Shown here piece by piece: positions 6,618 to 10,877 of a stretch of 25,960 nt of DNA. Position 1 is the stretch's first letter. Each line of letters begins with the position of its first letter. Below the pieces are notes generated by a model that was given only the letters and a program-made list of their open reading frames with translations, did no database searches and was not told the DNA's origin. The stretch is from a virus, in the UHGV virus genome UHGV-0396296. One strand, given 5' to 3'. The position numbers and the translations under genes are program-made.

Positions 6618-6821
6618 TCATTGACGAGCAAAAAAAATTTCTTCTACTGACGTACCGTAATATTCTGCAAGTCTTATTTTAATTTCATCACGCGGCACTC
6701 TTTCGCCATTTTCATACATTGACAATGCCGATGGGCTTATACCTGTTGCTCTTGCTACTTCCTCCTGGCTTTTGGCGCCTCGAAGTTTTACAAGTCTTTC
6801 GGATATTACGCTCTTGTCCAT
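6618..6821 (-). CDS. Cro-like XRE-family HTH regulator
   Basis: 67-aa ORF. SQEEVARATGISPSALSMYENGERVP is a canonical XRE HTH. Transcribed divergently from the CI-like gene, towards the replication genes. Confidence 0.7.
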   Translation of the reverse strand: MDKSVISERLVKLRGAKSQEEVARATGISPSALSMYENGERVPRDEIKIRLAEYYGTSVEEIFFARQ

Positions 6822-6847
6822 TGTTCTGCACCTCCTTTCACATCATG

Positions 6848-6925
6848 ATTATATCATTCGCCACAAATCGTGTCAACACATTTTGTGGACTTTTTCTTTA
6901 CTTTTTCCACGAATCGTGTTATTAT
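6848..6925. promoter_or_regulatory. Divergent switch region: consensus leftward promoter (TTGACA-N17-TATAAT on minus), weaker rightward promoter, and three operator-like sites
   Basis: Minus strand -35 at 6871-6876 and -10 at 6848-6853 with a 17-nt spacer. Direct repeats CCACAAATCGTGT (6861-6873) and CCACGAATCGTGT (6907-6919), plus inverted partner ACACATTTTGTGG (6876-6888). Confidence 0.5.
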
Positions 6926-6954
6926 TTGCGTACACCACATATGGAGGGATAGCA

Positions 6955-7266
6955 ATGTCAAAGTTTTCAACGGTTTTTAAAAATTTAAGAATCAATAACG
7001 GATACACGCAACAGGAGCTTGCTAATAGACTTGGCGTTTCACGCAGTGCCGTTGGTATGTATGAAAATGGTGAGCGTGAGCCTGATTTTGAAACGTTAGA
7101 GGCAATAGCTGATTTCTTTAATGTGGACATGGACTATTTAATGGGTAGGAGTAATAAAATCACAACTATCGCCGCCCACCATGAAGGCGAAGAATGGACA
7201 CAGGAAGAACTTGATGAGATAGAAGAGTTTAAGAAATTTGTGAAATCAAAAAGAGATAATAAGTAG
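6955..7266 (+). CDS. CI-like XRE-family HTH repressor
   Basis: ATG 6955 preceded by GGAGGG. YTQQELANRLGVSRSAVGMYENGEREP is an XRE HTH. Followed by an ImmA-like gene. The track ORF start at 6772 is upstream of the promoter region. Confidence 0.7.
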   Translation: MSKFSTVFKNLRINNGYTQQELANRLGVSRSAVGMYENGEREPDFETLEAIADFFNVDMDYLMGRSNKITTIAAHHEGEEWTQEELDEIEEFKKFVKSKRDNK

Positions 7267-7320: not shown

Positions 7321-7704
7321 GTGACGAAGTACGAAGAACTTATGGCAAGATACGACAATCTCCACATCGAGGAACGACCCATGAAAAATGATGGTCTGTA
7401 CGCTGATGATTGTATCTGGATCAATAGGAACATGCCGGAATGCCGCCGGTATTGCACGCTTGCAGAAGAGATCGGACACTATGAGACCAGCGTTGGAGAT
7501 ATATTGGATCAGACCAATACGAATAACCGCCGGCAGGAGCGAGCTGCCCGCAAGTGGGCATACGAGGAAATACTGCCAGTCGAAAATATATTATTCGCCG
7601 CTCAGGATGGACACACTGATATATGGGACATGGCAGAATACTTAGAAGTAGACGAAGCATTTCTAAAGGATGCTTTAAGGCATTATGGGATTTTAGACAT
7701 ATAA
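7321..7704 (+). CDS. ImmA/IrrE-family (M78-like) metallopeptidase homologue with non-canonical EEIGH motif
   Basis: 127-aa ORF, GTG start after GGGGAGG. Pattern IWINRNM...RRYCTLAEEIGHYE...WAYEEILPVE matches ImmA family architecture, but the first His of HExxH is Glu. Confidence 0.6.
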   Translation: MTKYEELMARYDNLHIEERPMKNDGLYADDCIWINRNMPECRRYCTLAEEIGHYETSVGDILDQTNTNNRRQERAARKWAYEEILPVENILFAAQDGHTDIWDMAEYLEVDEAFLKDALRHYGILDI

Positions 7705-7782: not shown

Positions 7783-8262
7783 ATGAGTGAATTTAATGAG
7801 AAACCTAAAAAGAAATTTTATAAGCGTTGGTGGTTTTGGCTAATAGTGGCCGTGGTAGTCATCGGCGTAGGTGGTGCCGCCGGGAGCGGCGGTGATGATC
7901 CTGCCGATACAAAAACAGCGCAAACCGAGCAAACAGAAGAAGCGACAGAGGCAACAGAAGCAACGGAAGCCCTCACGACCGGACAAAGAAATGCTCTCGG
8001 CTCCGCAGAGTCTTACCTTTCCGCTATGCCGTTCTCATATTCAGGGCTAATAGAACAGCTTGAATATGAAGGATACTCAACAGAGGACGCTACTTATGCC
8101 GCTGACAATTGTGGTGCAGATTGGAATGAACAAGCTGCGTTATCCGCAGAGGATTATTTGGATATTATGTCTTTTTCGCGCGACGGGTTAATAGAGCAGT
8201 TGGTATATGAAGGCTTTACGCAGGAACAAGCTGAATATGGTGCATCCGCTGTTGGTTATTAA
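7783..8262 (+). CDS. ltp: Ltp-family surface lipoprotein/membrane protein (superinfection-exclusion type)
   Basis: N-terminal TM segment WWFWLIVAVVVIGVGG, TEATEATEATEA linker, and two tandem Ltp repeats (AESYLSAMPFSYSGLIEQLEYEGYS...DNCGADWNEQA and AEDYLDIMSFSRDGLIEQLVYEGFT). RBS AAAGGAG. Confidence 0.75.
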   Translation: MSEFNEKPKKKFYKRWWFWLIVAVVVIGVGGAAGSGGDDPADTKTAQTEQTEEATEATEATEALTTGQRNALGSAESYLSAMPFSYSGLIEQLEYEGYSTEDATYAADNCGADWNEQAALSAEDYLDIMSFSRDGLIEQLVYEGFTQEQAEYGASAVGY

Positions 8263-8474
8263 GAATAACAAATAATGTAAAGCCATTTAAACGAAAAAAG
8301 GGGTATTGAGATTGTGGGTTGATAGCTTTCTGCAAACGACGTATATGATATTTTTTAACCGCAAATTAGTACTAAATTTCAAGAAAACAGTAATTTTTTT
8401 CTTGAATATATAAGTTTTTGTATATTATGCTAAACATTTTCAGCATTTCAATAACAAAAAAGTAACAATAAACA

Positions 8475-8503
8475 TTGACATTTTAAAGCGCTCAGCGTAT
8501 TAT
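8475..8503 (+). promoter_or_regulatory. Candidate promoter upstream of the Abi gene (TTGACA-N17-TATTAT)
   Basis: Hexamers read directly in an AT-rich intergenic region. Confidence 0.4.
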
Positions 8504-8516
8504 AATATTAACAGAT

Positions 8517-8580
8517 CCCGCTGGGCTTCTAGGATATCTTTGATATCCAAGCAAAAATACAGCGGGCCTTTTGCTTTTTT
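8517..8580 (+). terminator. Terminator-like hairpin in the leader of the Abi gene (outer stem CCCGCTG/CAGCGGG, inner GGATATC-TTT-GATATCC, then TTTTGCTTTTTT)
   Basis: Read directly. Lies between the candidate promoter and ATG 8596. Confidence 0.4.
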
Positions 8581-8595
8581 GGGAGAAACAAAGTA

Positions 8596-9501
8596 ATGGA
8601 TCAAAAACCATACAAAACAATTGATGAACAAGTTGAAATTTTAAAAGACCGCGGGTTAATCATAAGTGATGAGGATTATGCAAAACGGTGTCTTACTCAA
8701 CTCAATTATTATCGTTTAAGTGGCTATACTTTGACATTACGAAAAAATAATAGCTTTTACAAAAACATAACTTTTGAAAACGTAATGGATATATATAACT
8801 TTGATCGTCAACTTAAACTTTATGTGTTAAATTATCTTGAAGACATCGAAATATCGTTGCGTACTCACATAGGTTATATTTTAGGAAGCATGGATTCAGA
8901 CAAACCAGCGTATCTTAATGCTGGTTGCTATATAAGCGATGCTCATTACAACAGAGTCCTTGAAGAACTGAAGGATGCCCTTGCTGACAGTAAAAATGAA
9001 GCCTTTGTAAAGCACCACCAGACAAAATACCGCGGAAGCCTTCCTTCATGGGTAATGGTCGAAACATTATCGTTCGGAGCGCTTTCAAGACTCTTTTCAT
9101 CGCTTAAGCAAGACATAAAATGTGACATCTGTGATGCTTATTATAACCAAATCCGCCCACAAGTTGTTGAAAATCTTCTAGAAGGTTTAGTTGTTCTTCG
9201 TAATATATGCGCTCATCATTCCCGCATATATAATCGAGGCATCCCAAACACACCTAAGATGTCTAAAGTAGATAATGATTTTTTTATAGATAATGGATAT
9301 GAGCGAAATGAAATAGGAAAAAAATTATTCTTCAGACTCGTAATCATAGACCGATTGATAGAGGATGCTAATTTTTTAAGCAAAATGATATCTGATATAG
9401 ATGCATTGTCTTATAAATATCCTTTTGTTCAACTCAGGCATTATGGTTTTAAAGCAGACTGGAAAAACATGGTTTCAGAAATTAATAAACAATATAAATA
9501 A
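8596..9501 (+). CDS. Abortive infection protein, Abi_2 family (AbiD/AbiF-like)
   Basis: 301-aa ORF. KTIDEQVEILKDRGL, LNYYRLSGYTLTLR, HHQ...LPSWVMVETLSFGALSRLF and LRNICAHHSRIYNRG match recalled hallmarks of Abi_2 proteins. The gene and its upstream region are markedly AT-rich. Confidence 0.8.
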   Translation: MDQKPYKTIDEQVEILKDRGLIISDEDYAKRCLTQLNYYRLSGYTLTLRKNNSFYKNITFENVMDIYNFDRQLKLYVLNYLEDIEISLRTHIGYILGSMDSDKPAYLNAGCYISDAHYNRVLEELKDALADSKNEAFVKHHQTKYRGSLPSWVMVETLSFGALSRLFSSLKQDIKCDICDAYYNQIRPQVVENLLEGLVVLRNICAHHSRIYNRGIPNTPKMSKVDNDFFIDNGYERNEIGKKLFFRLVIIDRLIEDANFLSKMISDIDALSYKYPFVQLRHYGFKADWKNMVSEINKQYK

Positions 9502-9621
9502 AACAAAAGCCCCCATCTCTGGGAGCTGATGTATAAGGGCTGTATGATACAACCCAGCGTCGCAACTGAATTGTATCATCTCAGCCCGAAAAAGTCAATT
9601 TTCGGGTATCTTTATGCCCTG

Positions 9622-9655
9622 AACCTAACAAATCTTTGAAAGGTTTTGTTAGGTT
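9622..9655. promoter_or_regulatory. Perfect 11-bp inverted repeat (AACCTAACAAA-N12-TTTGTTAGGTT) upstream of the integrase gene
   Basis: Read directly, 38 nt upstream of int ATG 9693. Adjacent AAGGTT direct repeats. Confidence 0.4.
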
Positions 9656-9692
9656 TTAAAAGGTTCAAGCAAGGTTTAAAGGAGATGATACA

Positions 9693-10877
9693 ATGCCAGG
9701 AACGAAACAGAAACGAGGAACAGACAGCTGGACCCTGCACGTCAGAGCCGGCACTGATTTTAGGGGAAAGCCCATAAGATATACCAAAACAGTACACTGC
9801 AAAAGCGAAGCAGCTGCAGACAGGGAACTCGCCCTGTTTTATGCAGATTGCGTAAACGGCCGGGTCAACAGATCTACACCTATAACAGTAGCAGAGCTTG
9901 CCGACCAGTGGTATGAAGAGTACGTACTGCGGCACTTAAAGGTCAGCGCCCGGCGTGGCATAGATCCCGCCATAAAGATGTGGATAAAGCCACTACTTGG
10001 AAATAAGAAGGTTTCTAAAGTACAGCGCCTCGATGTGCAAAAATGGGTAAATTACGTTTCCGATCCGCAGGAGCGTACGAACAAGAGGGGCGAAAAAGTT
10101 ATAAAGCAGCTCTCCCCTAAGACTGTACGAAATTACTACTCTGCGCTTCGCGGTATGTTTGATTTTGCGGTCGATATGGGGATCATCGAGGACACTCCCT
10201 GTAAAAATATCCGTATGCCGAAAAAGGATCATAAAGAGGCCACCTACTTTTCTATAGAGGAAGTAAATGTCCTTCTAGAAGCCCTGAGCGCCTTACAGAG
10301 CGACGAACTGCGCTACAAGGTAGCGATTTACCTCGGGCTGTTTGGCGGCCTCAGGAAAGGTGAAATAATGGGATTAAACAGAGAGGATATTAACTTTGAG
10401 CGAGGCGAAATAGCAATCCGGCGTACAAGGATGATAAAACCGAAGGAAGGCGTCTACGAAGACACGCCCAAGACGGATAAATCCATAAGGACGGTCGCCC
10501 TACCTCCGGAGGTTATGGCAGAGATCCTGTGCCTGATCGCGCAACAAAAGGAGCAGAAACTGCAGCTTCAGAACCAGTACCATGACTCCCCTGCCCTGCT
10601 CCGTAACGACCACGGGGACCCACTGTACCCGCAGGTGCTGCAGAGGTGGTTTACCCGATTCCTGGAGAAAAATGGCTTACCTCACGCTGGCCTGCATTCT
10701 CTAAGACACACACACGCCTCAATGCTCGTATATCTTGGTACGGATAAAATGCAGGTCAGCTCCAGACTGGGTCACTCTCAGCTATCGACTACGCTAAATA
10801 TTTACACGCACTTATTTGAAAACGCCGACAAAAAAATAGCGGAAGATCTGTCATCGAACTTCCTAAAAGCTCGCTAG
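9693..10877 (+). CDS. int: Tyrosine site-specific integrase (phage integrase family)
   Basis: 394-aa ORF. C-terminal catalytic signature LFGGLRKGE...HSLRHTHASMLV...LGHSQLSTTLNIYTHL (R, H-x-x-R, Y). N-terminal SAM-like region. Confidence 0.9.
   Translation: MPGTKQKRGTDSWTLHVRAGTDFRGKPIRYTKTVHCKSEAAADRELALFYADCVNGRVNRSTPITVAELADQWYEEYVLRHLKVSARRGIDPAIKMWIKPLLGNKKVSKVQRLDVQKWVNYVSDPQERTNKRGEKVIKQLSPKTVRNYYSALRGMFDFAVDMGIIEDTPCKNIRMPKKDHKEATYFSIEEVNVLLEALSALQSDELRYKVAIYLGLFGGLRKGEIMGLNREDINFERGEIAIRRTRMIKPKEGVYEDTPKTDKSIRTVALPPEVMAEILCLIAQQKEQKLQLQNQYHDSPALLRNDHGDPLYPQVLQRWFTRFLEKNGLPHAGLHSLRHTHASMLVYLGTDKMQVSSRLGHSQLSTTLNIYTHLFENADKKIAEDLSSNFLKAR

Follow-up and report, generated by a model that had tools for sequence, protein, structure and literature searches.

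The window, by which we mean the whole stretch of 25,960 nt of the UHGV virus genome UHGV-0396296 that was analysed, includes a gene for an abortive infection (Abi) protein preceded by a promoter, a nested hairpin and a T-rich run. The original prediction was that transcripts from this promoter would meet a terminator-like element before the open reading frame, in the layout of a transcriptional attenuator or conditional read-through switch that could keep a potentially toxic protein silent until infection. A small structured RNA was given as the fallback. The question raised by this locus is which of these the leader element is, and what it would do for the gene that follows it.

The gene (8596–9501, + strand) encodes a 301 aa HEPN protein of the Abi_2 (AbiD/AbiF) type, which matched Pfam Abi_2 (E=2.6e-51, 175 bits against a cut-off of 25.6), PADLOC AbiD (E=1.1e-84) and, over residues 4–291, the PDB entry 8vz6_A (PbAbiF; E=8.5e-34). 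The HEPN R-phi-xxxH motif is present as RNICAH at residues 202–207, with R202, N203, C205, A206 and H207 invariant in 39 homologs. Overall the protein is approximately 30% identical to PbAbiF and approximately 32% identical to the AbiF homolog of phage phiC2, which is a homolog of AbiFCd. The gene order on the + strand is repressor, ImmA, Ltp, Abi, Int, comprising an HTH repressor (6772–7266), an ImmA/IrrE protease (7321–7704), a superinfection-exclusion lipoprotein Ltp (7783–8262), the Abi gene and a tyrosine integrase (9693–10877); the rest of the window is occupied by - strand genes for recombination, lysis and structure. The GC content is 0.35 at 8001–9000 and 0.45–0.50 elsewhere, and from this and the gene order the Abi cassette is read as a moron of low GC content within a temperate phage's lysogeny module. 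A related locus (L089) has the same order, with an M78 peptidase followed by Abi_2 and then an integrase. In the window, the lysogeny module holds two defence morons in a row, Ltp and AbiD/F, between ImmA and the integrase.

The near-consensus promoter that had been placed at 8475–8503 (+ strand) is indeed there. It is of the sigma-70/SigA type, with a -35 sequence TTGACA (8475–8480), a 17 nt spacer and a -10 sequence TATTAT (8498–8503), matches the consensus at 11 of 12 positions and was the top promoter-like site between 7000 and 11000 in a promoter scan. From its position, transcription would start at about 8510–8511, approximately 6 nt 5' of the hairpin. The short 5' leader ACAGAU (8511–8516) is conserved, its A1, G4 and T6 being invariant in an alignment of 14 sequences (A3), and its counterpart in the canonical loci is (A)ACAAUA.

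The hairpin itself (8517–8566, + strand) was recovered in the MFE fold, in the RNAalifold consensus, by covariation and by the covariance model R2 described below. The 7 bp outer stem and 7 bp inner palindrome of the original prediction correspond to the helices designated P1, in which CCCGCUG (8517–8523) pairs with CAGCGGG (8560–8566), and P3, in which GGAUAUC (8532–8538) pairs with GAUAUCC (8542–8548) across a UUU loop (8539–8541). Between them are a 1 nt bulge on the 5' side (G8524), which separates P1 from the P2 helix, GCUU/AAGC (8525–8528 with 8549–8552), with its GC/GC core (8525–8526 with 8551–8552), and on the 3' side an asymmetric, A-rich internal loop of 7 nt, AAAAAUA (8553–8559). 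The T-rich run ahead of the start codon was also present; directly 3' of P1 is a tail (8567–8580) made up of CC (8567–8568) and a conserved U-run, UUUUGCUUUUUU (8569–8580). It is followed by a ribosome binding site (RBS), read from the sequence as GGGAG (8581–8585), 10 nt ahead of the ATG at 8596, and a GGAG-type RBS is found at the equivalent position in the homologs. P1 is thus 29 nt from the ATG. Small ORFs on the - strand (8492–8620 and 8500–8631) overlap the leader, but conservation in the leader tracks the RNA pairing pattern and not a reading frame.

Folding of 8505–8595, which had been proposed as a check, recovered the hairpin at an MFE of -23.4 kcal/mol, but with a z of only -1.87 and with 9 of 200 shuffled sequences folding equally well. 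The hairpin alone gave -20.2 to -20.6 kcal/mol. The folding energy of the leader is only marginally unusual and would not by itself be enough to establish the element. For comparison, sequences 5' of Abi_2 homologs were drawn from 2 genome loci, 80 metagenome loci and 14 loci retrieved by exact-protein look-up. The search of genome contigs was made with a single protein and returned only the 2 loci, and the taxonomic placement is weak, with relatives annotated as Clostridia or Firmicutes MAGs.

The same hairpin was found between the promoter and the RBS in all 14 of the closest homologs (42–68% protein identity), 23–38 nt ahead of the gene and irrespective of the neighbouring genes. The P1 variants are compensatory, and include CCCGCUG/CAGCGGG, CCCACUG/CAGUGGG, CCCGCAG/CUGCGGG, CCCGUCG/CGACGGG, CCCGCCG/CGGCGGG and CCCACC/GGUGGG. 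In a model-guided alignment of 23 sequences, P1 was 96.9% paired and five of its seven pairs showed changes on both sides. None of 500 shuffles matched P1 in percent paired, in the pairs and cells changed on both sides or in covariation score, and two of 500 matched the observed count of further pair types. When the partner columns were slid by 1–3 positions as a control, pairing fell from 86.5% to 33–43%. The GC/GC core of P2 is invariant in 23 of 23 sequences, and P3 stays a hairpin though its sequence and length vary among relatives. The ..AAAU.. of the internal loop and the (C/U)CUUUUG of the tail are constant among close relatives. RNAalifold recovered P1, P2 and P3 and found no other conserved helix up to the start codon.

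A non-circular test was provided by the covariance model R2, which was trained on 11 homologous loci, leaving out the window and its two nearest relatives, and was run against the window with filters off. It matched 8511–8576 (+ strand) at 65.9 bits (E=2.4e-14), and the absence of any other significant match in the 26 kb window indicates that the element is single copy. Neither a second copy of the motif (as in RCd22) nor a tandem array (as in ToxI) was found, and no tandem repeat covers the leader. The distance from the promoter -10 to P1 is exactly 13 nt in 20 of 26 homologous loci, including some that are positive for the Rfam family considered below, which bears out the original view that the structure lies in a transcribed leader. 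Given the R2 match, the covariation in P1 and the fixed promoter spacing across loci, the hairpin is a real, conserved element and more than chance.

Viral contigs were also scanned from the RNA side with two half-hairpin patterns. Forty loci were returned but the whole hairpin was found in only three of them, each 75–79 nt 5' of an Abi_2 gene, and the other 37 were rejected as chance matches inside GC-rich coding DNA. BLAST of 8270–9620 against phage records yielded no match over the RNA or the gene, only one over the abi–int spacer.

An RNA found ahead of genes of this type is already catalogued. The abiF RNA motif (Rfam RF03085) was reportedly described by Weinberg and colleagues in 2017 as conserved upstream of abiF genes. 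The positive control, phage phiC2, scored 37.6 bits with RF03085 (gathering threshold 37 bits), with the consensus CCCGCC-A-AGC-loop-GCU-CAAAUC-GGCGGG-U. The same model gave no match at E<=10 to the window in either 8200–8700 or 8500–8600 (101 nt) and was not matched in the close relative L001, and no Rfam family, riboswitches included, was matched in the leader of the window. Because Rfam matched neither this leader nor its close relatives, bridging covariance models were built. One of these, R1, was built from the clade of the window, and outside its training set it matched L043, L044, L045, L052, L079, L061, L077, L027, L059, L068 and L057, in each case on the + strand and just 5' of Abi_2. 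At L079, L061, L077, L059, L068 and L057 the R1 match had an E of 7.7e-6 to 5.6e-3 and RF03085 matched the same coordinates; the two models also coincided, at weaker R1 scores, in L014, L071, L024 and L029. R1 found no match at E<=10 in phiC2 (L083). In the model-guided alignment the RNA of the window and those matched by RF03085 correspond column by column.

The two forms share the orientation of an Abi_2/abiF gene and a position just ahead of it, with a promoter 13 nt upstream, a covarying P1 of at least 6 bp and of the CCCGCY/RGCGGG type, a 1 nt 5' bulge, a P2 with a GC core, an A-rich 3' loop with ..AAAU.. and a U-rich tail, in addition to detectable homology. They differ in that the RNA in the window has a 7 bp P3 in place of the terminal loop, making it 50 nt rather than about 37 nt, and lacks the third pair of P2 (A-U), while P1 has gained a seventh pair; the internal loop is AAAAAUA and not CAAAUC, and the bulged base is G and not A. 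The P3 arm is fast-evolving and is absent from canonical abiF RNAs. RF03085 misses the window because the P3 arm, the lost third P2 pair and the loop sequence differ, and since it does so, membership of the family rests on the bridging models and the common architecture, by which the hairpin is classed with the abiF RNAs as a diverged form. The fallback in the original prediction, a small structured RNA, has thus become the best reading, in the form of a recognisable abiF RNA variant. The elements, the covarying fold, the linkage to a promoter and an Abi_2 gene, the homology to abiF RNAs and the homology of the protein to PbAbiF with an intact HEPN motif are directly supported.

Four of the loci matched by R1 (L043, L044, L045 and L052) form a subclade with a GC-rich RNA, ACCCGCCCGGCCUCUGUCCGCAAGGAUAUGCACACUGGGCGGGU followed by CUUUUGUUUU, located approximately 57 nt 5' of the Abi_2 genes and scoring 40–42 bits with R1. 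The only one of the four scanned with Rfam, L043, gave no match to RF03085 at E<=10. This subclade may be a second group that the Rfam model does not cover.

Two relatives have been characterised. RCd22 and AbiFCd, from the C. difficile prophages phi027 and phiC2 (Saunier et al. 2025, PMC12373285), are prophage-borne as in the window, and in both cases the RNA and abiF form one unit under a SigA-type promoter, an abiF-type hairpin precedes the gene and the protein has the HEPN R..H at residues 202 and 207. RCd22 is co-transcribed with abiF, most transcripts ending at a terminator ahead of the abiF ORF, and this premature termination, which the authors call riboswitch-like, holds down abiF expression; deletion of RCd22 raised abiF mRNA 17-fold (PMC12373285). 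[quoted passage not shown] Termination before the ORF is demonstrated in RCd22 and proposed for the window. RCd22 differs in that it contains two abiF motifs, has a terminator hairpin in addition and is separated from the ATG by 168 nt; in the window there is a single motif, at the 29 nt distance given above, and no additional terminator. RCd22 is in the lysis module and the window element is in the lysogeny module (ltp-abi-int).

The second system is PbAbiF-AbiFr (Zilberzwige-Tal et al. 2025, as summarised in PMC12737573 and PMC13064643). According to these summaries, PDB 8VZ6 is the Prevotellaceae AbiF (PbAbiF) with its non-coding RNA (PMC12737573), and the cryo-EM structure has one hairpin RNA per HEPN monomer with bulge nucleotides blocking the RNase (PMC12737573, PMC13064643). 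The system resembles the window in its homologous protein and in having one hairpin RNA upstream of the gene, with a single-stranded bulge on its 3' side. In the loci nearest to PbAbiF (L028, L056 and L073) the U-run directly follows the hairpin, as it does in the window, but the Bacteroidota-type RNA, GCUUACCCCGCU...AGCGCGCUCAGGGUGAGC (compared here through these loci), has a 4 bp P2 and no P3, unlike the window.

By homology to the RCd22 and PbAbiF RNAs, 8511–8580 is predicted, with good confidence on our part, to encode an antitoxin RNA of a type III-like kind for the AbiF HEPN RNase of the window. For RNA–protein binding, antitoxin action, termination or read-through and the trigger, the scheme that follows draws on these characterised relatives. 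In a two-component toxin-antitoxin (abortive infection) module of the AbiD/AbiF type, the promoter, hairpin and U-run would supply the RNA component. The constitutive promoter would initiate transcription approximately 6 nt ahead of P1, and the nascent RNA would fold in the order P3, P2, P1. At the U-run after P1 a share of the polymerases would terminate, or the RNA would be trimmed, to give a small RNA of approximately 65–70 nt, and the remaining polymerases would continue into the RBS and the abi ORF. The small RNA, together with the same hairpin on the mRNA leader, would bind the AbiF HEPN dimer, one RNA per monomer, so that the A-rich internal loop on the 3' side reaches the active site of the RNase and the toxin is neutralised. 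A superinfecting phage would upset the RNA:protein balance, and free AbiF would then cleave RNA and arrest the cell.

As a terminator the hairpin is sub-canonical, being a 50 nt compound structure with a GC-rich base and a 2 nt CC spacer before the U-run. It was not called in a terminator scan, and a d'Aubenton-Carafa-type score, the values of which are indicative only, was approximately -51 when the CC was counted and -4 when it was skipped. The U-rich tail is a family-wide feature, with a mean of 7.6 T in the 12 nt after P1 (64 loci with a scanner-found hairpin), and (C/U)CUUUUG(U/C)UU is conserved right after P1 across the whole clade of the window. The hairpin and tail of the loci nearest to PbAbiF look like a classical terminator (L056 scores +9.8 with the same formula) and the terminator signal in the clade of the window is weaker than in these. 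We lean, by a small margin, towards the hairpin's own stem and the U-run forming a leaky terminator; otherwise they may mark the region of the small-RNA 3' end.

Within the tail (8569–8574), 21 of the 23 sequences in the A5 alignment have the G at the fifth position (UUUUG), which persists in loci with proteins that are only approximately 30% identical. This G can pair with a C of the 3' strand of P2, but without covariation.

The attenuator of the original prediction, taken as a transcriptional attenuator or a read-through switch of the riboswitch kind that acts purely in cis and is relieved by a signal such as infection, is the alternative that fares best, though we consider it improbable. 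The GC-rich P1 followed by a conserved U-run directly ahead of the RBS would suit it, and so would the C. difficile findings that most transcripts stop before abiF and that deletion of the RNA increases abiF mRNA (PMC12373285). A switch, however, needs a competing structure, and the leader falls short of this because it is short and has no other conserved helix; the approximately 6 nt before P1 leave no sequence for an antiterminator, and RNAalifold found no second conserved helix from the hairpin to the start codon. The hairpin scores below canonical terminators, and a bare terminator needs neither an invariant P2 nor a conserved, asymmetric A-rich loop. An RNA of the same family works in trans by binding protein (PMC12373285). 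Of the original proposal, the part in which termination in the leader holds down the gene thus has a precedent in RCd22, while the conditional part is left with no room for an antiterminator and none that is conserved.

One alternative pairing was considered as evidence for a switch and rejected. The sequence AAGCAAAA at 8549–8556, which reaches into the internal loop, can pair with UUUUGCUU in the tail (8569–8576), perfectly over 8 bp in the window (-4.9 kcal/mol), and 82% of cells are pairable family-wide. No both-side changes were found, and the covariation score was equalled or exceeded by 193 of 500 shuffles. An A-rich, protein-binding loop facing a U-rich tail explains this pairability just as well.

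A different form of attenuation is conceivable for the antitoxin RNA of this Clostridia-phage clade, in which the U-run adjoins P1 and no second terminator follows, so that the antitoxin fold would itself be the terminator. Binding of the nascent hairpin by AbiF might then stabilise it and raise termination (protein-dependent attenuation), with P3 as a specificity arm between co-resident AbiF systems. We regard this combination as rather unlikely but, if true, the attenuation would couple toxin synthesis to the amount of free toxin.

Stem-loops close to the 5' end are in a typical stabilising position in Firmicutes mRNAs, and as the hairpin would begin only approximately 6 nt from the 5' end and has weak terminator scores, it might act only on the abi mRNA, by protecting it from 5' exonucleases or by modulating access to the RBS, and neither release a small RNA nor serve as an antitoxin. 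We think this very unlikely, as it leaves the conservation of the internal loop, P2 and the U-run unexplained across loci with approximately 30% identical proteins, and contradicts the direct evidence on RNAs of the same family (PMC12373285, PMC12737573). A terminator or insulator of the upstream repressor-ImmA-Ltp operon, or a chance hairpin in an AT-rich spacer, is scarcely credible, for although the scan called no + strand terminator between the ltp stop (8262) and the abi promoter and the folding z is modest, the hairpin lies downstream of its own conserved promoter, travels with Abi_2 genes beside unrelated upstream genes, was found by the independent model R2 and has a fold backed by covariation.

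An RNA antitoxin, the preferred reading, places the locus close to the type III toxin-antitoxin systems (ToxIN, AbiQ and TenpIN), which likewise consist of a promoter, an RNA antitoxin, a terminator-like element and an RNase toxin, act in anti-phage abortive infection and use termination to set the excess of RNA over protein. Unlike the ToxIN type, the window has a single copy and no tandem antitoxin repeat array, and its toxin is a HEPN-fold Abi_2 protein and not ToxN/Kid-like.

What had been an anonymous Abi gene with an odd leader can accordingly be annotated, on this reading, as a complete two-component AbiD/F RNA–protein defence module, lying beside ltp on a temperate phage. The Rfam abiF model misses a long-P3 subclade in phages of Clostridia and gut metagenomes, and annotation pipelines will label these systems as protein-only. 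The family has already been defined computationally (2017) and mechanistically (2025), and the hairpin is an ordinary member of it that leaves the current understanding of how the AbiF family works unchanged. Specific to this case are the long, fast-evolving P3 subclade, the single motif without a separate terminator and the lysogeny-module site beside ltp. The AbiF family has reportedly been proposed as the ancestor of Cas13 and its crRNA, and the lengthened terminal arms document plasticity in the RNA partner of AbiF.

Some further features were seen around the cassette. In about half of the close homologs (L003, L004, L087, L089, L091, L093 and L095) the untranscribed spacer between the -35 and -10 sequences is G-rich, with the blocks GACGGGG, GGTGGG, GGCGGGG, CCCCGGGG, GGACGGG, GTCGGGA and GGCGGGA, which resemble the 3' arm of P1. 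The spacer in the window (8481–8497) has AGCGCTCAGCG instead. The G-rich block might serve as a DNA operator or be left over from a duplicated motif, or it might be due to chance.

The leader of the integrase gene (9560–9705, + strand) is far more strikingly structured than that of abi, with an MFE of -52.9 kcal/mol where shuffled sequences averaged -28.1 (z=-7.0; none of 200 shuffles as good). Two hairpins are enclosed by a perfect 13 bp long-range helix, 9570–9582 with 9682–9694 (ATTGTATCATCTC / GAGATGATACAAT), which also occludes the RBS (GGAG) and start codon (ATG at 9693) of int. The two arms of this helix are conserved in an unrelated fecal phage contig (MT839113), in which the insert between the arms is shorter and different. 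The integrase leader is a candidate for translational control of the integrase.

The stretch at 9498–9600 is 78% identical to MT839113. The motif ATGATACAA occurs three times, in direct orientation at 9544 and 9686 and inverted at 9571. A hairpin at 9508–9527 is terminator-like on the - strand only (AGCTCCCAGAGATGGGGGCT then TTTGTTTTAT), and is faced by a promoter-like site on the - strand, TTGACT-17-TACAAT with an upstream TG (9598–9570). Together these could produce an RNA of approximately 60 nt that is antisense to the abi–int spacer.
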